Source: Nitrospirota bacterium
Lineage (GTDB): Bacteria; Nitrospirota; JACRHJ01
Assembly: GCA_963733375.1 (NCBI GenBank)
Contig: CAVTDB010000026.1
Span: forward strand, 416,001 to 480,000
Length of the DNA: 64,000 nucleotides
Direction of reading: 5' to 3'
Shown here: piece by piece, positions 1 to 31,296 of the stretch
Numbering within the stretch: the stretch's first letter is position 1
Layout of the letters: every line of letters begins with the position of its first letter
Program-made: the position numbers and the translations under genes
Notes under the pieces: model-generated
The model's input: the letters and a program-made list of their open reading frames with translations, nothing else
Database searches by the model: none
What the model was told of the DNA's origin: nothing

Positions 1-725
1 GAATATCCGACCTCCATCACCTCGAATGTTATATTATTCGAGAAGAGCTTGATCTTCAACCCTTTATAGACCCGGCCATCAACCACCCGGACCAGCACCA
101 CCACGCCCTGATAGGTATCGAACCAGGAGTCGAATATCAGCGCCTTGAGCGGCGCGTCAGCGTCGCCCTCCGGCGGGCTTATCGTATTCACTACCGCTTC
201 GAGCGTCTCCCGTATCCCGATCCCTTCCTTGGCGCTAACGGGGATTGCCTGGGACGCGTCCAGCCCTATCACCTCTTCTATCTCGTTCCGGACCCTCTCG
301 ACATCGGCGCTCGGCAGGTCTATTTTGTTTATTACGGGGATTATTTCGAGGTCGTTATCAATCGCCAGATAGGCGTTTGCAAGCGTCTGCGCCTCCACGC
401 CCTGGGAGGCGTCCACAACGAGCAGCACGCCTTCACACGCGGCGAGGCTCCTGGAGACTTCGTAGGTAAAATCGACGTGTCCGGGCGTATCGATTAAGTT
501 CAGGACATAGCTCCGTCCATCCGCCGCAACGAAATTTATCCTGACGGCGTGGGATTTTATGGTTATCCCGCGCTCACGCTCAAGCGGCATGTCGTCCAGG
601 ACCTGGTCCGACATCTCCCGGGCGCTAAGCGCTCCGGTCAACTCGAGTATCCTGTCCGCCAGCGTGGACTTGCCGTGGTCTATGTGAGCTATTATGCTGA
701 AATTTCTTATGTTTTTGATTTGCAT
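1..725 (-). CDS. lepA: Elongation factor 4 (LepA), 5' part; runs off the left edge of the window
   Basis: Manual translation from ATG at 725 gives [25 protein letters not shown]; downstream [10 protein letters not shown] and NKID GTPase motifs. Confidence 0.96.
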
Positions 726-737
726 TGCGAACTAATG

Positions 738-766
738 ATTTTATATTGAATTTATTTGAAAGTCAA
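738..766 (-). promoter_or_regulatory. Sigma70-type promoter of lepA
   Basis: TTGACT-17 nt-TAAAAT on the minus strand, 12 nt before the ATG. Confidence 0.65.
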
Positions 767-1174
767 AGGGTTTTAGGGGATATGTCAAATAGGGCAGCTG
801 AATATTTGTCGATATACCATCTCCATTCATTCTTAATAACCTCTCTCGACTTGCGCGCCAACACATCGCCGCGTAATGCTTAATCATATATAAATGGGTT
901 TATTGACGGATTTTAGCGGGTACGAATCTGGCGTCATTTCACCCCATTCGGGGCCACTTTTGGGGGTAAAAAAGCGGGTTTCGGAAGGCATCTTTTTAAA
1001 AGGGCAAATGGACCCGTTTTCTGTTATTTTGTATGGAGTTATGCCGCAGAAATTTGCAGATTGCCGACGGAGGAAAACCCGGTTTTCGTCTCACTCAACC
1101 AATTGAAAAATAAAGGTTCTCTCACACTGATTTTTGCGGATTTCTATATACCGCCAGCATTAATAAGCAGCTAT

Positions 1175-2143
1175 TTATTTGACCCGTATTATTTTCAGCG
1201 CCAGCCCCGCCGCGCCAAGGATTCCGGCGTCGTCTTTCAATTTGCCCCGGACTATCCTGCACCTCTCGGCGGGTATTTTGAACGCCCTTGCCCTGACTTC
1301 CTCTTTTAACGGACCGATGAAGAGGTCCCATGCCCCGGCCATGCCGCCCCCGATGACTATGCACTCTATATTGAGCAAATTAATCAAATCGGCAATGGCA
1401 ATGCCTAGGTATTTCCCCACATCGAAATATATCCCGCCTGCAACTCTGTCCCCTTTTTTTGCCGCATCCGCCACCGCTTCCGCCGTTATCGGAAGTCCAG
1501 CTTTTTTCAGGTCTTTTAAAGTTGTGTTGACCCCCCTTGCTACCGCCGCGCCAGCCATCTCGATGACCGCGGTGGCGGAAGAGTACCTCTCCAGGCACCC
1601 GCGGTTCCCGCAAGGGCAGAGCGGCCCGTCAGGGTTAACCGTGATATGCCCGACTTCCCCCGCCATGCCGTCCGCGCCGCGCCAGATATTACCTCCCAGT
1701 ATTATACCGCCGCCCACCCCCGTGCCGAGCGTAATGCAGACCATGCTGGAGGTCCCTTTTCCGGCGCCGAACCAGTATTCACCCAGGGCATAAGCGTTGG
1801 CATCGTTTTCCACATGGACCGGATAGGAGAAACTCTCCTCAAGCCTTGCGCGGAGCGGGATATCCTTCCAGCCCGGCAGGTTCGGAGACAACCGCACGAT
1901 GCCCTCCTTCGCCGAAATTATCCCGGGGACGCCGATGCCTATACCGGCTATTTTCATCCCGGCGGCCTGGGCTTTTCTTGCGAGAGTCTGTATCCCGCCC
2001 GTCAGCCGCTCCAGGACTGTTTCCGCCCCTTCTGCCGCCATAGTCCCGGTGCGCCGGCGGGAGATAATTTTTTCGTCCTCTCGCACCAGCCCGAACCGCA
2101 GGTTAGTCCCGCCGAGGTCAACTCCTATAGCGGTTTTTTGCAA
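1175..2143 (-). CDS. glk: ROK-family glucokinase
   Basis: GVDLGGTN, ENDAN, LGTGVGGG, GEVGH and CPCGNRGCLE motifs; TTG start at 2143 preceded by AGGAGG. Confidence 0.88.
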   Translation of the reverse strand: MQKTAIGVDLGGTNLRFGLVREDEKIISRRRTGTMAAEGAETVLERLTGGIQTLARKAQAAGMKIAGIGIGVPGIISAKEGIVRLSPNLPGWKDIPLRARLEESFSYPVHVENDANAYALGEYWFGAGKGTSSMVCITLGTGVGGGIILGGNIWRGADGMAGEVGHITVNPDGPLCPCGNRGCLERYSSATAVIEMAGAAVARGVNTTLKDLKKAGLPITAEAVADAAKKGDRVAGGIYFDVGKYLGIAIADLINLLNIECIVIGGGMAGAWDLFIGPLKEEVRARAFKIPAERCRIVRGKLKDDAGILGAAGLALKIIRVK

Positions 2144-2175
2144 CTGAGCGCCCTCCTGTAGTAATAATAGATAAA

Positions 2176-2204
2176 ATAATAGTTCCCCCTGGCCCTTTTG
2201 TCCA
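2176..2204 (-). promoter_or_regulatory. Putative sigma70 promoter of glk
   Basis: TGGACA-17 nt-TATTAT. Confidence 0.45.
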
Positions 2205-2304
2205 TAATAAAACTTTAGGGTTACTATTGGCGTCATAAATGATAGGATTTCGCAACCTCCGGCGCAAGACTCGAAATTATTAAAGAAAAACTAGTTTATT
2301 ATTC

Positions 2305-2333
2305 TTGAATTTTTTTAAAATCCGTGTTAATAT
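2305..2333 (+). promoter_or_regulatory. Putative sigma70 promoter (extended -10) of the perR/hfq-like operon
   Basis: TTGAAT-17 nt-TAATAT with TG at -15/-14. Confidence 0.5.
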
Positions 2334-2379
2334 TTGCCCCGTATGCAATTATCTAATAATAATAAATGGGATGCCTGCC

Positions 2380-2781
2380 ATGAAAAACGAAAACGGAATT
2401 AAGTACAGGATGACGAAACAGAAGAGAGTTATCCTCGAAGTCCTTAAGAATACGAAATCTCATCCCACCGCGGATTGGGTTTACGACAAGGTCAAGAAAA
2501 AGATTCCGAACATCAGCCTCGGCACGGTATACAGAAATCTTAACATATTGAAAAACCAGGGCGAGATACTCGAACTGTCCTACGGCAAAGGCTTCAGCCG
2601 CTTCGACGGCAACTCTTCAAAGCATTATCATTTCACCTGCGAGCACTGCGGCAGGATATTAGACGTCGAAACACCGGAATTTCCCGAAATCGAGCAGGAA
2701 GTTACCAGGCACATGGGCGTCAAGGTGGCGCGGCACCGTCTTGAATTCTACGGTTCCTGCCCGGACTGCATTACCGACTGA
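2380..2781 (+). CDS. Fur-family regulator, PerR-like
   Basis: HPTADWVY, SLGTVYRNL, RFD, HYHFTCEHCG, ILDV and CPDC; the His/Asp ligand pattern matches PerR, with two CxxC for structural Zn. Confidence 0.9.
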   Translation: MKNENGIKYRMTKQKRVILEVLKNTKSHPTADWVYDKVKKKIPNISLGTVYRNLNILKNQGEILELSYGKGFSRFDGNSSKHYHFTCEHCGRILDVETPEFPEIEQEVTRHMGVKVARHRLEFYGSCPDCITD

Positions 2782-2801
2782 CCCCAACCTTACGGCACCG
2801 A

Positions 2802-3290
2802 ATGACCCAGGCACTGAAGCTCGAAGAATCTTTTTTTAAAATAGCTGTCGAAGAGGCTGTCGCCCTGAGGCTTACTCTCGCGAACCGCGAAAGGCTGACA
2901 GGCATAGTAAAAGCGGCGGGGAAATACGATTTAAACATCGAATCGGAAGGGCGCATCATTGCGCTCATGAAAAAAGAAGTTTTTCAGGTCCTCCCCTCCA
3001 GAAACCTCATCGATGAATCTTTTTTCCAGCCTCAAGCAGAGGAAGAGCAGCTCCCCCATAAATCACGGGTGCAGGACGAATTCCTGGGCCGTTACGTAAA
3101 GGAGCGGACGCTCGCGCTTTTGCGTCTCGTCAACGGCGAGGAGATACGGGGCGTCATCGAAGGGTACGACGGCTTCACGATATCCATAAGAACGGGCAGG
3201 GGCCAGACCCTGATATACAAGCACGGGCTCTGCAACATCAGTCCCGGTTACAGACGTCGCCAGAGGGAAAATGAACACCAGCCCATTTGA
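2802..3290 (+). CDS. Protein with two tandem Hfq/Sm-like domains
   Basis: C-domain QDEFL..LVNG..GVIEGYDGF..QTLIYKH aligns to Hfq; N-domain LEESFF..LANR..LTGIVK..LMKKEVFQVLPSR is a degenerate copy. Confidence 0.8.
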   Translation: MTQALKLEESFFKIAVEEAVALRLTLANRERLTGIVKAAGKYDLNIESEGRIIALMKKEVFQVLPSRNLIDESFFQPQAEEEQLPHKSRVQDEFLGRYVKERTLALLRLVNGEEIRGVIEGYDGFTISIRTGRGQTLIYKHGLCNISPGYRRRQRENEHQPI

Positions 3291-3676
3291 TGAAGCGTTG
3301 GAAGGGTTTTATTCCAAGGGTGCGGAAGCCGCTATTACCTTAAAAGACGGCTCCGAGCTTAAGGGCAAGGTAAAGAAATACGACGGCTATGTCATATTCC
3401 TGGACAACGGGGCCGAAATGATGGTCTATCGCCATTCGATCCTGAAGCTCTCCGAAGCGGCGCGGCCGGCGCAACGGGCGGAGAAGGCCCAGGCGCGCCC
3501 CAGGCCAGCACCCCGGACGGCTCCTGCGCGAATGCCCCAGAAGTACGCGCCCAAAAGAAAAGGCCGCCCAGGAAAGAGCCCTTTCAGGCCATTCCCCAGA
3601 AGGAACAGGAGCCAGGTGGTATATCCCGGATGGGAGAAGAACTGCTGAAGTGGCTGAAGAACCAAAAGGGCAATGA
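3271..3676 (+). CDS. Divergent Hfq-like protein with Pro/Ala/Arg-rich tail (one apparent indel near 3590)
   Basis: ITLKDG..LKGKVKKYDGYVIFL..MMVYRHSI Sm1/Sm2 pattern; an alternative frame gives EEQEPGGISRMGEELLKWLKNQKGQ* ending in an ATGA overlap with lnt. Confidence 0.75.
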
Positions 3677-5197
3677 GTAACATCTCTTTGTTTTTCCTCC
3701 CCCTGCTCTCAGGAATACTCCTCGCGCTCTCTTTCCCAAAGGCGGACATATCCGTCCTTGCCTGGGTCGCGCTGATACCGCTTCTTTATTCCATCAGGGA
3801 CAAGTCGCCCAGACAATCTTTTAAAGAGGGTTTCATTGCCGGGATAGCCTTTTACGCGCTCTCCCTGAGATGGGTTTTAATCGTCATGCGGGATTATGGC
3901 GGCATAGGCTCCCTTCCGAGCTTTTTCCTGCTGCTCGCGCTCTCGGCGTACCTCGCCCTGTACATCGGCACGTTCGCCTGGCTTTATGTCAAGGCGCGGG
4001 AACATGCCGGGCCAGCCTCGGTACTGCTGGCCCCTGCATTCTGGGTGGCTCTGGAACTGCTCCGGAATTACCTTCTCTCCGGCTTTCCCTGGAACCTGCT
4101 GGGATATTCGCAGCACCAGAACCTGCCCCTGATACAAATTGCCGATATTACCGGAGTTTACGGCGTCTCCGCTTTAATCGTTATGACAAACGCGGCGATT
4201 ACCGAATTTATTGCGGTGATGTCTTACAGGGAATATGCGGACCGGAAGATAATCTGGCCTGTCACGGCCGTGGCGGTAATGGCCGCTCTCCGCCGTCTAC
4301 GGACATTACCGTCTGACGGACCTCCCGCGCCCGTATGGTTCCATGACAGTAACCGTCGTGCAGGGGGATATAGAGCAGTTCCATAAATGGGACCCGGCGT
4401 TCCAGATGCAGGTATTCGATGTTTATAAAAAATTAACAGCCGATGCCGTGGCACAGAAAAAGCCGGACCTCGTAATCTGGCCGGAGACCGCGACCCCTTT
4501 TTATTTTCAGGACAGGGTTCTGGTCGGGGAGCTTTCCGACTCGGTTAAAAAGACAAATACCTGGCTTCTGACCGGTAGCCCTTCCATCGAGGAGCGCGGC
4601 AGCGATTACGTCGAGTACAACAGTGCATATCTCATTAATCCCTCTGGAATACCGGCGGACCGCTACGACAAGATGCACCTGGTGCCGTTCGGGGAATACG
4701 TGCCGCTTAAGACCCTCCTGCCGTTTGTAAGCAAGATGGTCCACGGCATCGGCGATTTCGGCGCGGGCCGCGACTATACCGTCATGCGGATGAGCAAGGG
4801 CTCTTTCGGGACCGCGATATGTTTCGAGGTTATATTCCCGGAACTCGTGCGGCATTTCGTGTTGGGGGGCGCGAATTTCCTGACCAGCATAACCAACGAT
4901 GCATGGTTCGGAAATTCCGGAGCTCCGTATCAGCATTTCGATATGTCGGTGTTCCGGGCGGTGGAGAACCGGAGGTCTATGGTGCGCGCGGCCAATACGG
5001 GCATATCGGGTGTAATACTTCCGTCGGGCGAAGTGATTGCGAGGACGAGTCTTTTCAAGCGGGTACGCGATTACGGCGGAGGTGCCTTTGATGAAAGAAA
5101 AAACCTTCTACACCCTGTACGGGGACATATTCGCGTACTTATGTTCTGGAATTACGGCATGCTTTATTGCTATAATTTTATACAGGAGGTCCTTTAA
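3673..5197 (+). CDS. lnt: Apolipoprotein N-acyltransferase (broken by indels near 4295 and 5065)
   Basis: GFPWNLLGYSQ, WPETA, YDKMHLVPFGEY, ICFE, TNDAWF and RAANTGIS motifs across three frames. Confidence 0.93.
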
Positions 5198-5201
5198 AAA
5201 G

Positions 5202-6333
5202 ATGATAACAATGGAAGAAGTACAGCGGGAGCTCTCAAGCCTGCGGGATAGGGTTTCGGCCCTGAGGAGGCATCTTTGACATACCCGCCAAGGAGAAGCG
5301 CGTCCAGGAGATAAACGGCCTGATGGAGGTCCAGGAATTCTGGGAGAACGCGGAAGCCGCGCAGTCGCTCATGAAGGAGAAAACCGGCCTTCAGAGCGCC
5401 ATCTCGTCCTGGGACTCTTTAAGCAAGGCATCTGAAGAGCTTGACGTGATGCTGGAGCTTGCCTCGGAGGAGGGCGGCGAAGAGCTTACACTGGACATAG
5501 ACGCGGCGATGAAAAAACTCGCCCATGATATAGACTCGGCTGAGCTGGAGCTGATGCTATCCGGCGAGAACGACCGGCTTAACGCCATCCTTACCGTCCA
5601 CCCGGGCGCTGGCGGGACGGAATCCCAGGACTGGGCGGAGATGCTGCTCCGGATGTACCTTAGGTGGTGCGAGCGCAGGGGCTACAAGACCGAGATAATA
5701 GACTACCTCCCCGGCGAAGAGGCTGGCGTGAAAAGCGTCACGTTCGAGGTCACGGGCAAGAACGCATACGGATATTTAAAGGCGGAGGCCGGCGTCCACA
5801 GGCTGGTAAGGATATCGCCTTTCGACTCCAATAAAAGAAGGCACACGAGCTTCGCGTCCGTATTCGTCTATCCGGAGGTCGAGGACGACGTAAAGATAGA
5901 GATCGACGAGAAAGACTTGCGGATAGACACCTACCGGGCTTCCGGCGCGGGCGGCCAGCATGTCAACAAGACCTCCTCCGCCATACGGATTACGCACATA
6001 CCGACGAATATCGTCGTGCAGTGTCAGGACGAGCGCTCGCAGTTCAAAAACAAGGACAAGGCATTCAAGGTCCTGCGCTCCCGCCTCTACGACCTGGAGG
6101 TGAAGAAGAAGGAAGCGGAGCGCGACAAGATGAACAGCACGAAAAAGGACATCGCCTGGGGAAGCCAGATACGCTCCTACGTCTTCATGCCCTACCAGAT
6201 GGTTAAGGACCATCGGACCGGCCATGAGGTCGGGAATATAAGCGCGGTTATGGACGGCGACCTGGACGGCTTCATCGAGGCCTATCTCCTCGGCAAGCGC
6301 GCGCAGCCGGGCGCCGCGACAGACGACATCTAA
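5202..6333 (+). CDS. prfB: Peptide chain release factor 2 with programmed +1 frameshift
   Basis: SPF and GGQ motifs; the 25-codon first segment ends in CTT TGA C and continues as DIPAKEKR in the +1 frame. Confidence 0.97.
5265..5280 (+). promoter_or_regulatory. RF2 autoregulatory +1 frameshift site
   Basis: AGGAGG-CAT-CTT-TGA-C: internal Shine-Dalgarno 3 nt before the canonical slippery site. Confidence 0.95.
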
Positions 6334-6971
6334 TGGACATAAACGACCTCCTCCGGCATTACAAGGGCCGCAAGAACGAAATCCGCGCCCGCCTCGCCGA
6401 GTTCAAGGAAACATGGCGGCAGGGAGACCTTGCGATATTCAAGGAACTCTGCTTCTGCATCCTTACCGCCAATACCTCCGCGAAGATGGGCATCAACTGC
6501 ATCGAGGCCGCCGGCGACGATATACTCACCGCTGACGTTGAAGGTATAAGGAATATCCTCTGCGGCAGGTACCGCTTCTGGAAGATTCGCCCGAACTATA
6601 TCATCCATACGCGGGAATACCTTCAACAGGAATGCGCCCTCAAAATAAAAAAGAAAATCGAGTCGCTTGCCGACTTCCACCAGCGCCGCGATTTCTTCGC
6701 GGACAACCCCGGCATAAAAGGTTTAGGTTATAAGGAGGCGAGCCATTTCCTCCGTAACATCGGGTTTGAAGGCTATGCCATTTTAGATATCCACGTCGTC
6801 CGCCTGCTCCACGAACTGGGCATACTCCCGGAGGCGAAACGCCCGGCGAACCGCAAGCAGTATGTCTTCATGGAAGAGAAGATGCGCGAATTCTCCAAAG
6901 ATATAAAAATCGGAATGGACGAACTCGACCTTGCGTTATGGAGTTACCGGACGGGGGAGATACTTAAATAA
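6333..6971 (+). CDS. ogg: 8-oxoguanine DNA glycosylase/AP lyase (Ogg2 type, HhH-GPD)
   Basis: ELCFCILTAN, KGLGYKEASHFLRNIG, AILDIHV and a C-terminal Lys. Confidence 0.88.
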   Translation: MDINDLLRHYKGRKNEIRARLAEFKETWRQGDLAIFKELCFCILTANTSAKMGINCIEAAGDDILTADVEGIRNILCGRYRFWKIRPNYIIHTREYLQQECALKIKKKIESLADFHQRRDFFADNPGIKGLGYKEASHFLRNIGFEGYAILDIHVVRLLHELGILPEAKRPANRKQYVFMEEKMREFSKDIKIGMDELDLALWSYRTGEILK

Positions 6972-6988
6972 ACTGTTCCTTTATTCCC

Positions 6989-7017
6989 TTGACCTGCCTA
7001 TAATTTCTTTCTATAAT
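6989..7017 (+). promoter_or_regulatory. Sigma70 promoter of lysS
   Basis: TTGACC-17 nt-TATAAT. Confidence 0.75.
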
Positions 7018-7051
7018 TCCAACACTTTATAAATTCATGAAAGGACTCGTA

Positions 7052-8602
7052 ATGCTCGAAGAGAATGAACTGATACAGGTGCGCAGAAAGAAGCTCGAAG
7101 ACTTACGTGCGATGGGGATAAACCCTTACGGGCAGAGATATGAGGTAAAAGACCACGCGAAGGAACTGCACGATAAATACGGCCCGACATCCAAGGAAGA
7201 ACTGGAAAACAATAAAGTCCAGGTAACGGCGGCGGGACGGATCGTGGCCTTCCGGAGCTTCGGAAAGGCCGCTTTTGCGCATATACAGGACGTAAGCGGA
7301 AAGATACAGATTTACATGAAGCGCGACATTCTGGGAGAGGAGCAGTTCAAGCTTTTAAACCTGCTTGATATAGGCGACTATATCGGTGTGGAGGGTTTCC
7401 TGTTCCGCACGAGAACGGACGAGCTGACGGTAGAGGTGGAGAAACTAACGCTCCTTTCCAAGTCCCTTCGCCCCCTGCCTGAGAAATGGCATGGCTTAAC
7501 TGACATCGAGACCCGCTACCGCCAGAGGTACGTGGACTTGATCGTGAACCCGGAGGTCCGCGACACCTTTGTCACGCGCAATAAAATAATCAAGGCCATC
7601 CGCGCATCCCTGGAGGAAAAGGGTTTTCTGGAAGTCGAGACGCCCATGATGCAGCAGATACCCGGCGGAGCCACCGCTAGGCCGTTTATCACGCACCATA
7701 ACGCCCTGGACATGGACCTGTACCTGCGCATCGCGCCGGAGTTGTATTTAAAGCGTCTTATCGTCGGCGGGTTCGAGAGGGTCTACGAGTTGAACCGGAA
7801 CTTCCGGAACGAGGGTATCTCCATCAAGCACAACCCCGAGTTCACGATGCTGGAGTTCTATATGGCGTATGCGGACTACCACGTCCTGATGGAACTGACG
7901 GAGGAGCTTTTTTCGCGCATAGCACTGGAAGTGAAGGGCTCGCTGAAACTTGCGTACCAGGGGGACGAGGTGGATTTGACCCCTCCCTGGCCGAGGATGA
8001 GCATGGAGAAAGCGATTGTAAAATTCGCCGGCGCCGGCAGTGATGATTTAAACGACCTGGAGCGTGCGCGGGCGTTCGCGAAGAAGAATGACGTGCCGCT
8101 TGAAGATGGACTTTCCCTGGCGAAGGTGGTCAACGAGATATTCGAGAAGACCACGGAGTTCAGGATAATCAACCCGGTCTTTATAACCGATTACCCGGTC
8201 GAGCTTTCGCCGCTTTCCAGAAGAAATGACCAGAATCCGGAGTTGGTCGATCGTTTCGAACTGATAATAGCCGGGCGAGAGATGGCAAACGCATTCTCGG
8301 AGCTTAACGACCCGCAGGACCAGCTCTCGCGCTTTCAGGACCAGGTCTCCCAGCGCGAGAAGGGCGATGTTGAGGCGCAGTTCATGGACGAGGACTATGT
8401 ACGCGCGCTCGAATATGGCATGCCTCCGACAGCCGGAGAGGGCATAGGCATCGACCGCCTGGTGATGCTGATGACGGACTCCCCTTCCATCCGCGACGTA
8501 ATCCTTTTCCCGCAGTTGCGGAAGGAGTTCAAAAAGGGTACAAGCGATATGGGCGCATCGGCGGCTGGAATTAATAAAGAAGATCCGGAAGAGCGGCGTT
8601 AA
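7052..8602 (+). CDS. lysS: Lysine--tRNA ligase (class II)
   Basis: [40 protein letters not shown]; ATG at 7052 after AAGGA. Confidence 0.98.
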
Positions 8603-27770: not shown

Positions 27771-28169
27771 TTAATACCGGCCGGAGAAATAATCCTCAAG
27801 TATACGGGGGTGGTCGAAACAGATGGGAGAGGGCAGGCTGCCTTTGGCGAAAACGCCTATGCCCTTTGCGTCGTCGCCCGCTCTCGGCATGCCTTCCGCC
27901 CTGGCTATGAATACCGTCGATATGGTGTGGAAACGGGGGTCCCTTTTCGGGTCGGAATATGTATGGAACTGACGGATCAGCAAAACGTCTAAATCAGTCT
28001 CTTCCCTGGCCTCCCGGACGGCCGCGGCCTCGGCGCTCTCGCCGTAATCTATGAACCCGCCCGGTATCGCCCAGCCATGCGGCTCGTTCTTCCTCTCTAT
28101 CAGGACTATCCCCTCCGGCAGCTCGATTATGATGTCCACCGTGGGGAAGGGGTTCTTCCTTTCAGGCAT
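27771..28169 (-). CDS. NUDIX hydrolase
   Basis: [22 protein letters not shown] Nudix box, RDPR. Confidence 0.92.
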
Positions 28170-28495
28170 CAGCCTTCCACCCAGGGCTCCTCGGACTCCG
28201 CCGGTACCGGGGCCGCCGTCTCCGGCAGCGGGATTTCCCTGGCGTCCTTCGGCTCTTGCTCGGCATGGTTTACATGGCCAGCCAGTTCCACCGCGCGCTC
28301 CGGCACGATCGAATTGATGGCGTGCTTGTAGATAAGGTGCTGGCCGTCATGCTTAAGCAGAATGACGAAGTTATCGAAGCCTTTCACCAGGCCCTCGATC
28401 TTACCCCCTCCGGCGATATTCACGACTACCGGGATTTTCTCTTTTCGCACGTGGTTTAAAAACGCGTCCTGCAGGTTTATCTGGGACCTCGACAT
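28169..28495 (-). CDS. hfq: RNA chaperone Hfq
   Basis: [20 protein letters not shown]; directly downstream of miaA. Confidence 0.93.
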
Positions 28496-28554: not shown

Positions 28555-29529
28555 CTATCGGAAATCCCCGGAAATATCAAGTGCTTTCTTCACCGAGTCC
28601 ATGGATGACGCTAAATTTTTATCAGAAATATCAACCCACTGCACGCCTTCCTGGCCGTTGAACCAGGTATATTGCCTCTTGGCGTAGTGCCTCGTGTCGC
28701 GTTTTATCAGCCGCGCCGCCTCATCCAAGCCCAGTTCGCCGTCCAGATGCGCCAGGAGCTGCTTGTAACCGAGGGCATGCATGGAGGGCATCTCACGGGT
28801 GCAGCCTTTATCCCGAAGCGTCTTCACCTCGTCAAGAAATCCCTCATCCAACATCTTGTCCACCCGCGCTTCTATACGCCTGTAAAGCTCCGGCCGGGGC
28901 ATTGTCAGGCCCGCGATTTTACAGTTGTACCTGCCGCCCCTGTCAGCACCCCTATCTGAGCGTCTATCTGAGCCTGTGGCTGAGCCTGTGGCGCCCCACT
29001 GAGACTGGCTCTCGCTGATTGGCTTGCCGGACTTTTGAAATACCTCCAGCGCGCGAATCGTCCTCCGTACGTCCGAAGGATGTATCTTTTCCGCCGCCTT
29101 CGGGTCGGCATTTTTCAACATACTATAAAGCGCGCCCGGCTCTTTGCGTTCAGCGTCCATCAGTTCTTCCCGCAGGGCGAAATCCGCAACCGGACCCTCA
29201 AACAGCCCCTCCGTGAGCGCCCGTATATACATTCCCGTCCCGCCCACGACCAGGGGGATTTTTCCCCGTCCAGTTATATCCTTTATCGCCTCATCCGCAA
29301 GCTGGACGTACCGCCCGGCTGAGAATTCCTCCTTCGGGTCCGCCACGTCTATCAGGTGGTGCGGCACCCGCGCCCGTTCATCCGGTGTCGGCTTCGCTGT
29401 GCCGATGTCCATGCCCCGATAGACCTGCATGGAGTCCGCGGAGATTATTTCCGCGCCTATCTCTTCGGCAATGGCTAACGATATTTCAGTCTTGCCGACT
29501 GCGGTCGGGCCGACGATAATATAAATCAT
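28555..29529 (-). CDS. miaA: tRNA dimethylallyltransferase
   Basis: GPTAVGKT, ADSMQVY, DIGTAKP, VGGTGMY, YAKRQYTW. Confidence 0.96.
   Translation of the reverse strand: MIYIIVGPTAVGKTEISLAIAEEIGAEIISADSMQVYRGMDIGTAKPTPDERARVPHHLIDVADPKEEFSAGRYVQLADEAIKDITGRGKIPLVVGGTGMYIRALTEGLFEGPVADFALREELMDAERKEPGALYSMLKNADPKAAEKIHPSDVRRTIRALEVFQKSGKPISESQSQWGATGSATGSDRRSDRGADRGGRYNCKIAGLTMPRPELYRRIEARVDKMLDEGFLDEVKTLRDKGCTREMPSMHALGYKQLLAHLDGELGLDEAARLIKRDTRHYAKRQYTWFNGQEGVQWVDISDKNLASSMDSVKKALDISGDFR
28930..28992 (-). repeat. Degenerate 12-bp tandem repeat inside miaA
   Basis: ACAGGCTCAGCC/ACAGGCTCAGAT/AGACGCTCAGAT/AGGGGTGCTGAC/AGGGGCGGCAGG. Confidence 0.7.
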
Positions 29530-31296
29530 TTCCTCTTGAACATCTTCTCCAGCTCGTTCAGCCCGAACTTTATCACCGTCGGTCTGCCGTGTGCGCAGGT
29601 GTATGGCATCTCGCAGGAGAAGAGTTGTTCTATGAGCCGCTCCATTGCGTACGGGTGCAATTTTTTGCCAGCCTTGACGGCGCTCTTGCAGGCGACCGAT
29701 TTGCAAATTTTTTCCCGAAGCTCCTCCGCCTTCCCTTTCACGTCCGCGCTTTCCAGCTCGGATACCAGCCCCAGCACCACTTCCTTTATGTCCGCCTTCT
29801 CAAGGAACAGCGGCTTTGAGCGGATGAGGAAACTCCCGCCGCCGAAAGGCTCCGCATCTATGCCCAGTTCCTTAAGCTCCGGCAGGACGGCCTCAAGGAG
29901 CGCCGCCTCCTTCGCGGTAAGCTCTATGCGCTCCGGGACCAGTAACCCTTGCGAGGATTCCCCGTGCTTGCCGAACCGGGCCTTCACCTTTTCATACTGC
30001 ACGCGCTCGTGCGCCGCGTGCTGGTCGATTAAGATAAAGCCGTCTTCTCTCCTGGCAATGATGTAGGAATCCATAACCTGCATGGGGAACTCCCGGCTGA
30101 ATTCCCGTTCCGGTTCCGGATGTACATTCCTCTCCGTGTGGAGCGGAATCCTCTCCTGGCGGTGCTCATACGTACTCCCCTCTCCCGGCGCTCCGCGCCA
30201 CCCTCTCCCACAGGTGGAGAGGGAAAGCGGGAGGGGATATTATACGGCGGGGCGAATGGGGCAGGGGCCTCGCGCACTGTGCCGGCATCCATGAAGGCAT
30301 CGGCGCCGGGGGCGCACTCGGAGCTTTTCAGCGCACAGATAACAGCCTCTTTTATAGTCCTCTGCACCCCTTGCGCATCCGCGAAACGGACCTCCCTCTT
30401 GGCCGGATGCACGTTCACGTCCACCTGAGAGGGTTCTATATCTATGAACAGGATTGATGCCGGGTGCCGCTCCTTCATCAGCAGCGACTCGTATGCATCG
30501 TAAAGGGCGCGGGTTATCACACGGTCCTTCACGGGCCGGTGGTTCACGAAGGTCTCCTGCCTTGAGCGGTCGGAGAAGGTGCTTCCCGGCGCGGAGACGA
30601 AACCATGAACACGGCATGCTCCGCCGCCGTTATTTATCTCCGAGAGTCCCTTCGCGAAGTCTCTTCCGTAAACCTGGGCCACCCGCTCCCTGAGCTCCCG
30701 GACCGGCGGGCAATCGAACAATTCCTTGCCGTCACTTGTCAGCCTGAAATGGACCATCGGGTGCGCAAGCGCCAGCCTCTCAACCGTCGCCGCGATATGC
30801 GACAGCTCGGTCTCCCGGCTCTTTAAGAACTTAAGCCTCGCCGGGGTATTGAAGAATAAGTCGCGCACCTCCGCCGTGGTCCCCCTGGCCGCGCCGACCT
30901 CCTTCACGCCCTGGATTTTTCCGCCTTCGATTAGATCAATGAGCCGTGGCCCTCACCCGTGGAGGTGGTGAGCCTGAACCGTGAAACCGATGCGATGGAC
31001 GGGAGCGCCTCGCCCCGAAAGCCCATGGTGGAGATTGACAAGAGACCTTCGTCGGAACTCAGCTTGCTGGTGGCATGGCGTTCGAATGCCAGGAGTGCGT
31101 CGTCCGGGGACATCCCCGAGCCGTCGTCGATTATCTTTATTACCTTGGTCCCGCCGCCCCCCGTCTCGATGAATATCCGGGATGCGCCCGAATCGAGGGA
31201 GTTTTCGACCAGTTCCTTCACCACCGACGCCGGACGCTCCACCACTTCTCCGGCGGCGATTTTATTGGCGATATTTTCAGGAAGGATTTTAATCAT
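29526..31296 (-). CDS. mutL: DNA mismatch repair protein MutL (at least two indels)
   Basis: [39 protein letters not shown]. Confidence 0.96.
30177..30223. repeat. CCCTCTCCC-type palindromic repeat within the mutL linker
   Basis: CCCCTCTCCC-GGCGC-TCC-GCGCC-A-CCCTCTCC-CACAGGT-GGAGAGGG, two hairpins. Confidence 0.7.

Follow-up and report, generated by a model that had tools for sequence, protein, structure and literature searches.

A stretch of 64,000 nt from a Nitrospirota bacterium (contig CAVTDB010000026.1; the window in what follows, to which all coordinates are relative) carries two overlapping genes that encode three different Hfq-like domains, here named A, B, and C. The first gene, AB (2802-3290, + strand), is an open reading frame (ORF) for a 162-aa tandem Hfq paralog with a degenerate domain A and a near-canonical domain B. 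The second, C (3271-3680, + strand, read through one frameshift), encodes a third domain followed by a basic tail and a conserved terminal helix. The next gene is lnt, encoding apolipoprotein N-acyltransferase, and a canonical hfq is retained elsewhere in the window. In our most likely reading, to which we give about an even chance of being right as a whole, AB and C together make up a specialised mixed ring of Hfq type, (A-B-C)2, distinct from the housekeeping Hfq; it would combine non-equivalent RNA sites with a basic tail and a partner-binding helix and would be expressed together with lnt. A preliminary description of this DNA, made from the letters alone, had noticed the genes and their domains and had suggested such a ring; its observation is confirmed and its interpretation is partly supported by the analysis given here.

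Three Hfq domains in two genes

The Pfam Hfq model (PF17209, cut-off 27 bits) matches AB with 63.8 bits in two stretches, the best of which (residues 90-148) shows that the score is carried by domain B (residues 88-149, 3063-3248, + strand). The same model matches C with 36.5 bits over residues 7-60, inside domain C (residues 1-62, 3271-3456, + strand). A six-frame scan of the genome gave four Hfq-like stretches, namely the canonical Hfq (88.4 bits), B (54.0 bits), C (37.5 bits), and A (12.8 bits), and a fifth match on another contig, of 11.5 bits over 17 model positions, was read as noise. Domain A (residues 5-66, 2814-2999, + strand), when taken alone, stays below the cut-off with an E value of 0.22, yet is colinear with the model over positions 4-62.

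With BLASTP, B and C align to the window's canonical Hfq with 37% identity (E 1e-13) and 29% identity (E 5e-10), respectively, and a BLASTP search with domain A gave a non-significant alignment to the canonical Hfq (E 0.088) and none to B, so that profiles were needed for this domain. Between a profile of 18 A domains and one of their 18 B counterparts, hhalign gave a probability of 95.8% (E 7.4e-9) and put 60 of the 62 columns in register. When the A profile was run with hmmsearch against all PDB chain sequences, 42 sequences were found at E ≤1, the ten best of which are all Hfq, with Aquifex Hfq at the top (E 6.3e-7). By these profile comparisons, domain A is a true Hfq domain. The claim of three Hfq-like domains in two overlapping ORFs (2802-3290 and 3271-3648) is thus borne out by profile and fold matches, for AB and C above the Pfam cut-off and for A through its family profile, and the motifs quoted for it are present in the translations (AVEEAV and LMKKE in A; VQDEFL, LVNGEE, and LIYKH in B; LKDG and VYRH in C).

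The AlphaFold2 model of AB, built from a 24-row alignment, shows a helix and five strands, twice, with a mean predicted local distance difference test (pLDDT) of 78.5 and a predicted template modelling score (pTM) of 0.52. The pLDDT is above 90 for residues 7-65, about 85 for residues 89-148, and below 50 for residues 79-87, which belong to the A-B linker (residues 67-87, 3000-3062, + strand). This linker is poorly conserved, predicted to be disordered, and acidic, with a median net charge of -2 in 41 sequences. Among the matches listed by Foldseek for the AB model, only Hfq structures occur, and VIA-align placed solved Hfq structures on residues ~1-78, corresponding to domain A, in 49 of 50 rows (Z 10.9-12.8, root-mean-square deviation 0.8-2.3 Å) and on residues 86-150, corresponding to domain B, in one (Z 11.9). 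C was modelled from the sequence of a genus-mate because the window's copy is frameshifted. This model has a helix and five strands over residues 5-62 (pLDDT >90), a disordered region over residues 63-120 (pLDDT ~50), and a helix at residues 121-134 (pLDDT ~81).

All three domains are therefore predicted to adopt the Sm/Hfq fold, an N-terminal helix followed by a five-stranded bent sheet. The lack of an Sm fold in A or C was one of the points on which the ring proposal had been set to fail beforehand, and this fold is predicted by AlphaFold2 for both and matched by VIA-align for A. The Pfam Sm/Lsm model (PF01423, cut-off 23.4 bits) stayed below its cut-off, with AB at 12.9 and C at 13.0 bits (E ~0.09).

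Co-occurrence and linkage to lnt

AB and C share the same distribution. Among 301 Nitrospirota genomes, the AB profile gave matches to both domains, or to pieces at contig ends, in 74. Exactly these 74 were also picked up by the C profile, with E values of 2.6e-56 to 4.3e-17 for the C-type matches, and the two were never found apart. C lies downstream of AB on the same contig and strand in 72 of these genomes, with match-to-match gaps of -8 to 385 nt, and both genes are located at contig ends in the remaining two. The expectation that the two genes should co-occur in relatives is thus confirmed, and an architecture with this recurrence is far beyond chance. The pair occurs in five of the 34 coded families, which are the window's own (the window genome and 9 of 11 relatives), f5 (59 of 64 genomes), f6 (3 of 3), f7 (1 of 1), and f14 (1 of 1), and most of the other coded families show single-domain Hfq matches only.

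A word-indexed search of 5.8 billion proteins yielded no more than 25 AB clusters (137-164 aa) and 12 C clusters. The nine loci in species genomes are all from Nitrospirota/Nitrospirae metagenome-assembled genomes, and in eight of them C comes right after AB or an AB remnant; the contig of the ninth ends less than 350 nt from AB. In all 12 loci fetched from four other families, AB is followed by C and then by a gene with LNT_N and CN_hydrolase domains. Overall, wherever the contig is long enough, C is followed by lnt, as seen in all 12 distant loci and in 8 of the 9 close ones. Junctions are short or overlapping, from -59 to +14 nt for AB-C (13 intact loci and the window, where both genes are on the + strand and overlap by 20 nt) and from -25 to +12 nt for C-lnt (13 intact loci), and by its position lnt may be translationally coupled to C.

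The flanking genes differ between families. The gene upstream of AB is fur in the window's own family only. In f7 it is a gene with a VTT domain, in f6 one for a class A penicillin-binding protein, and in most f5 loci a divergent PTPS-family gene, beyond which a TldD/PmbA gene lies; on the other side, lnt is followed by prfB or a convergent recO. Since the outer genes vary, the constant block is AB-C-lnt.

Many of the genomes with AB-C hold an additional canonical-type Hfq match. In the window, the canonical hfq (28169-28495, - strand, 108 aa, Pfam Hfq 87.6 bits), already recognised as a separate normal gene in the preliminary description, is located directly downstream of miaA (28555-29706, - strand). 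The retention of this gene beside miaA, together with the separate canonical matches in other genomes, indicates that the AB-C module is an addition to Hfq, not a replacement for it.

In four other families, neither profile gave any Hfq-type match (f9, 0 of 50 genomes; f10, 0 of 28; f16, 0 of 11; f17, 0 of 25). The listed genomes are mostly 95-100% complete, and large parts of Nitrospirota may lack Hfq.

When the AB profile was run with HMMER over 1.84 billion representatives, 3912 proteins matched at E ≤0.001, seven of them at E ≤1e-30. Among the best 150 of these 3912, about a dozen are of AB type and match across both domains in one stretch, and about two dozen others, 101-202 aa long, show their Hfq stretches separately, two or three per protein; of the 11 separate-stretch proteins inspected, both halves are near-canonical in eight. 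A metagenome scan with profile P0065 found other tandem Hfq genes, whose downstream neighbour is a receiver-domain gene in place of C and lnt, and one with profile P0055 gave no match. In the Atlas, the cluster nearest to AB (score 0.95) has an Hfq domain and a length of 139 aa and is most frequent in Deferribacterota; we take it only as a lead to AB-type genes outside Nitrospirota. An Atlas search with C, Hfq clusters excluded, gave nothing above 0.77.

The receiver-linked genes were found on metagenome contigs of 37-42% G+C (loci L029-L034, ~3731-4507), where a tandem Hfq of 159-167 aa is followed within a few nt, or overlapped, by a CheY-like receiver gene. Their first domain has Y-K-Q or N/S-K-N/R, and their second has Y-K-T/N/S instead of Y-K-H. 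Two of these loci have dnaN upstream.

Domain-specific residues

Each of the three domains carries its own fixed residue signature in the sequences compared. Position names refer to E. coli Hfq, with equivalents mapped by alignment to the window's own Hfq, and residues were counted in 41 sequences for A and B and in 26 for C; near-identical sequences are included, so the counts are not independent events. F42 and H57, which have recognised roles in Hfq, are among the positions compared. Q8 and K56 belong to the proximal face of Hfq, and Y25, I30, and K31 to its distal face (PMC5348863).

The Q8-equivalent is Glu in A (41/41), Gln in B (41/41), and a hydrophobic residue (Phe, Leu, Ile, or Val) in C (26/26). 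The Sm2 motif reads [P/L/M/S/T]-K-[K/Q/H/R] in A, with the Lys in all 41 sequences, Y-K-H in all B, and Y-R-H in all C. At the D40-equivalent, A mostly has Gly (36/41), and B and C always have Asp (41/41 and 26/26). The F42-equivalent is Tyr, Phe, or His in A (40/41), Phe or Tyr in B (41/41), and Tyr in C (25/26, with His in the remaining sequence). A also has no basic residues at the rim-equivalent positions. This non-interchangeable conservation in A, B, and C fits domains that occupy fixed positions in a mixed ring.

The window's canonical Hfq itself shows Asn at the Y25-equivalent and Gly at the I30-equivalent of the distal face, as judged by alignment. These two residues may set its site for A-rich RNA apart from the enterobacterial one.

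A predicted six-domain ring

We modelled a complex of two AB chains (41-row alignment) and two C chains cut to residues 1-68 (27-row alignment) and scored it for C as the partner; this is the sole stoichiometry modelled. The interface score ipSAE is 0.80, compared with 0.00 for the best of three controls; in calibration, 116 of 157 solved complexes attained the mark, as did 2 of 215 mismatched pairs. Contacts are shared between runs to at least 88%, and pLDDT for the partner is 83 or higher. In the model, the β5 region of B (140-148) contacts β4 of C (48-53), and β5 of C (55-62) together with its helix 4-10 contacts β4 of domain A (51-56) in the other AB chain. By these B-C and C-A contacts a six-domain ring is closed in the order A-B-C-A-B-C.

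From this model, the signatures, and the gene order, we infer the following assembly. AB and C would be translated in a coupled manner and thus be roughly equimolar, and two chains of each would form the A-B-C-A-B-C ring, in which the β5 edge of each domain pairs with the β4 edge of the next, as in Hfq hexamers. The aromatic walls of the proximal nucleotide pockets would be retained in all three domains, with the full Q / Y-K-H set in B only, a hydrophobic residue and Y-R-H in C, and Glu and x-K-K in A. Given the different fixed signatures of its domains, such a ring would be two-fold symmetric with non-equivalent RNA sites. Unspecific RNA affinity would be added by the long basic C tail, the conserved terminal helix of C may dock on a partner, and the module would be expressed together with lnt.

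Several points weigh against this reading. The ring score may reflect likeness to the plentiful solved Hfq hexamers rather than binding, so that the (A-B-C)x2 arrangement of the preliminary description, which the 2 AB + 2 C model does close, is supported by a prediction that admits this second explanation. The controls of the complex were unrelated proteins, not other Hfq domains, and both the 2+2 format and our own alignments differ from the calibration, which used single-chain pairs and the operators' alignments. The orientation of A relative to B is not fixed by the AB monomer model, given its pTM of 0.52. C and lnt are both frame-broken in the window, and this copy would be decaying if the breaks are real. 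Finally, a role of the terminal helix of C as a membrane anchor was considered and rejected, since its hydrophobic moment (0.32-0.66) and mean hydrophobicity (~-0.5 to +0.05) are too weak by a rule-of-thumb threshold; the sequences do not indicate such a role.

The main rival, to which we give limited but real weight, is that AB and C form two separate rings, an AB trimer that makes a pseudo-hexamer and a C homo-hexamer, and that their adjacency reflects duplication history and co-regulation only. Tandem Hfq genes do exist without a C-type partner, as in the low-GC receiver-linked metagenome loci described above, and many proteins with two Hfq stretches are found among the library representatives. 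The trimer idea has been published for Zymomonas (PMC2877685), and the aromatic and Y-R-H residues of C would suffice for the pockets of a homo-hexamer. Nevertheless, such a C6 ring would have no base-contacting residue in any of its six pockets, given the hydrophobic Q8-equivalent in every C sequence. Two independent rings also account poorly for the identical sets of genomes holding AB and C and for their tight or overlapping coupling, and the (AB)2C2 model closes with high confidence, even if it is the sole assembly modelled.

The tail and terminal helix of C

The tail of C (3457-3629, + strand, with the frame change inside it in the window) is rich in Pro, Ala, Gln, and Arg and predicted to be disordered. 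In all 26 C sequences, tails of 48-102 residues have an isoelectric point of 10.0-12.0 and a net charge of +4 to +9. The relatives' C proteins are 127-148 aa long, apart from one of 241 aa, and end in the conserved helix, whose motif in the window (M-G-E-E-L-L-K-W-L-K-N-Q...) together with the stop codon spans 3630-3680 on the + strand in the post-indel frame and overlaps the lnt start codon at 3673. In this motif, Trp is invariant and the preceding Lys nearly so among the 26 sequences, a conservation equal to that of the Sm2 motif. The preliminary description had ended C with a short amphipathic helix at 3676; the helix is indeed conserved, while it lies out of the frame of the window ORF, its amphipathicity is only moderate, and the end is off by 4 nt, with the TAA at 3678-3680.

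Conservation of this kind could also point to a protein scaffold, that is, an Sm-like ring without general RNA binding and with a role at the envelope or in lipoprotein biology, in which the helix of C recruits Lnt or another membrane protein. The terminal Trp and Lys, the persistence of lnt after C at short junctions where the outer genes vary, the lack of a Q8-equivalent Gln in A and C, and the lack of basic rim-equivalent residues in A all agree with it. Cyanobacterial Hfq, which binds a pilus ATPase rather than RNA, offers a precedent. We consider a scaffold unlikely, as B retains every proximal-site residue in 41 of 41 sequences, C retains the aromatic and R-H residues, and the C tail has the strongly basic character to be expected of a nucleic-acid binder; moreover, the lnt linkage may be mere co-transcription of housekeeping genes. 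The unbroken linkage to lnt points to a possible and unexplored connection between RNA control and envelope lipoprotein maturation.

One family shows a C-type protein of 241 aa with a longer tail (locus L022, G034:C18, 2247-2972, - strand). It has an insertion of ~55 residues between Sm strands 3 and 4 and retains Y-R-H and the terminal K-W.

Relation to known Hfq and Sm proteins

Among Sm proteins, Hfq serves as the textbook example of a homo-hexamer, and the evolution of mixed rings is assigned to eukaryotes and perhaps archaea. The AB-C module shares with the bacterial homo-hexamer of the PF17209 / TIGR02383 family the fold of all three domains, the proximal residues of B, and the predicted β5-to-β4 contacts. 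It differs from it by three non-identical domains in two genes, a ring predicted to be two-fold rather than six-fold, and lnt instead of miaA or hflX as neighbour.

Tandem Hfq itself is already known. A protein with two Sm domains, ZMO0347, was described in Zymomonas mobilis and in six other Sphingomonadales, and the authors ask whether three chains make a ring, with no structure or stoichiometry given in the available part of the paper (PMC2877685). These proteins also hold two Hfq domains in one chain of ~160-176 aa, so that fewer chains would be needed for a six-domain ring. AB is not a member of their family by NCBIfam NF010691, which it matches over residues 22-149 with 36.1 bits (E 4.5e-9) against a cut-off of 270. 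In contrast to the Sphingomonadales tandem, the AB-C module has a degenerate first domain, a strictly linked gene for a third domain, and a retained canonical hfq. The preliminary description, which knew of no characterised system of this layout, was thus too broad in respect of the tandem, whereas the degenerate first domain, the third-domain gene, and the tie to lnt do seem new.

Additional Hfq paralogs have been reported in Bacillus anthracis, where Hfq1-3 are unlinked and one is monomeric and dominant-negative in E. coli (PMC5348863), and in Burkholderia, where Hfq2 is an extra paralog (PMC3474761). As in the genomes studied here, more than one Hfq-type gene is present, the paralogs are divergent, and oligomer behaviour is altered, for AB-C as a prediction. 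Unlike AB and C, these are unlinked single-domain genes, and the available parts of both papers describe no fixed pair, fused degenerate domain, or lnt linkage. A eukaryotic parallel is found in Lsm(6-5-7)2 and Sm(F-E-G)2 (PMC3710371), mixed hexamers in which three paralogous Sm domains each occur twice and have paralog-specific conserved residues, as would be the case in the AB-C ring, which is predicted only. The AB-C sequences belong to the Hfq branch, are bacterial, and have two domains fused in one chain, unlike eukaryotic Sm/Lsm proteins. The tail of C also resembles the basic C-terminal extension of Burkholderia Hfq2.

A literature search, judged mostly from search records, revealed no description of an Hfq gene linked to lnt, of a natural Hfq heterohexamer, or of an AB-C-like module. 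One paper, as far as its extract goes, speaks of avoiding artificial Hfq heterohexamers (PMC4174439). What looks new is therefore the strictly linked layout of three domains in two genes beside a retained canonical hfq, together with the fixed domain signatures and the lnt linkage. That (A-B-C)2 would be the first natural heteromeric Sm ring in bacteria, arisen independently of eukaryotic Sm/Lsm and coupled through its helix to an lnt-linked partner, is a more tentative claim, to which we give somewhat less than an even chance. If true, bacteria would offer, in three Hfq domains that have become subfunctionalised, an independent and simpler example of the passage from homomeric to heteromeric rings, and the module would show how non-equivalent RNA sites are placed on one ring.

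Frame breaks in C and lnt

The ORF of C in the window (3271-3648, 125 aa) stops at 3646-3648, and the terminal helix is encoded in the next frame up to the TAA. Compared with two relatives (93-95% protein identity), the window is short of one base near 3539-3552, and beyond this break the next frame encodes the relatives' tail, conserved helix, and stop. Public run X3 includes an 836-nt contig of depth 6.2 that spans 3142-3976 at 95-99% identity; it has one base fewer at 3539 and two more at 3547-3548, a net gain of one. The lnt gene (3673-5197, + strand) is split in the window into the ORFs 3673-4386 and 4343-5197 by a frame change near 4287, where contigs of runs X1 and X3 have one base fewer. 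In the close loci, lnt is intact in seven (509-519 aa, 509 aa in genus-mates) and split in one. Since these contigs come from related strains and not from the same strain, they show that the relatives are intact, not that the window is erroneous.

The breaks may be due to assembly error or to recent decay. Both fall within 750 nt, one of them is in lnt, and the source assembly (2.39 Mb, with the window on contig 26 of 26) is rated 81% complete, which suggests that assembly error is at least an equal fit. The gap of 1 nt in the C tail and the extra base in lnt relative to relatives, together with the score of domain A below the Pfam threshold, might also be taken to mean that AB and C are decaying or redundant hfq duplicates without a function of their own, at least in this genome. 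This is very improbable, as the pair persists across five coded families (74 genomes), where residues are invariant in a family-specific manner, also in domain A, relatives at 95-99% identity have intact frames, and the breaks fit assembly error at least equally well.

Surrounding genes

Upstream of AB, at a distance of 20 nt, the window has a gene for a Fur-family regulator (2305-2781, + strand, Pfam FUR 114.4 bits), and lnt is followed by prfB (5202-6333, + strand). Over 2000-6600, promoter-like sites (5, against 2.8 expected) and terminator-like sites (7, against 5.4 expected) are at chance level; one + strand terminator-like site lies inside lnt, which neither proves nor disproves a single operon. 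Of 24 public runs listed, none was of RNA, and the contigs of the four compared here are all DNA. An Rfam scan of window positions 1-8000 gave no RNA family reaching its gathering score. In one locus of the window's family (L013, 3527-3946), a 139-aa small regulator-like ORF, presumably of Rrf2 type, lies between fur and AB. The window's prfB shows, as an ordinary feature, the programmed +1 frameshift site usual for this gene (CTTTGAC, 5274-5280), with AGGAGG in front of it.

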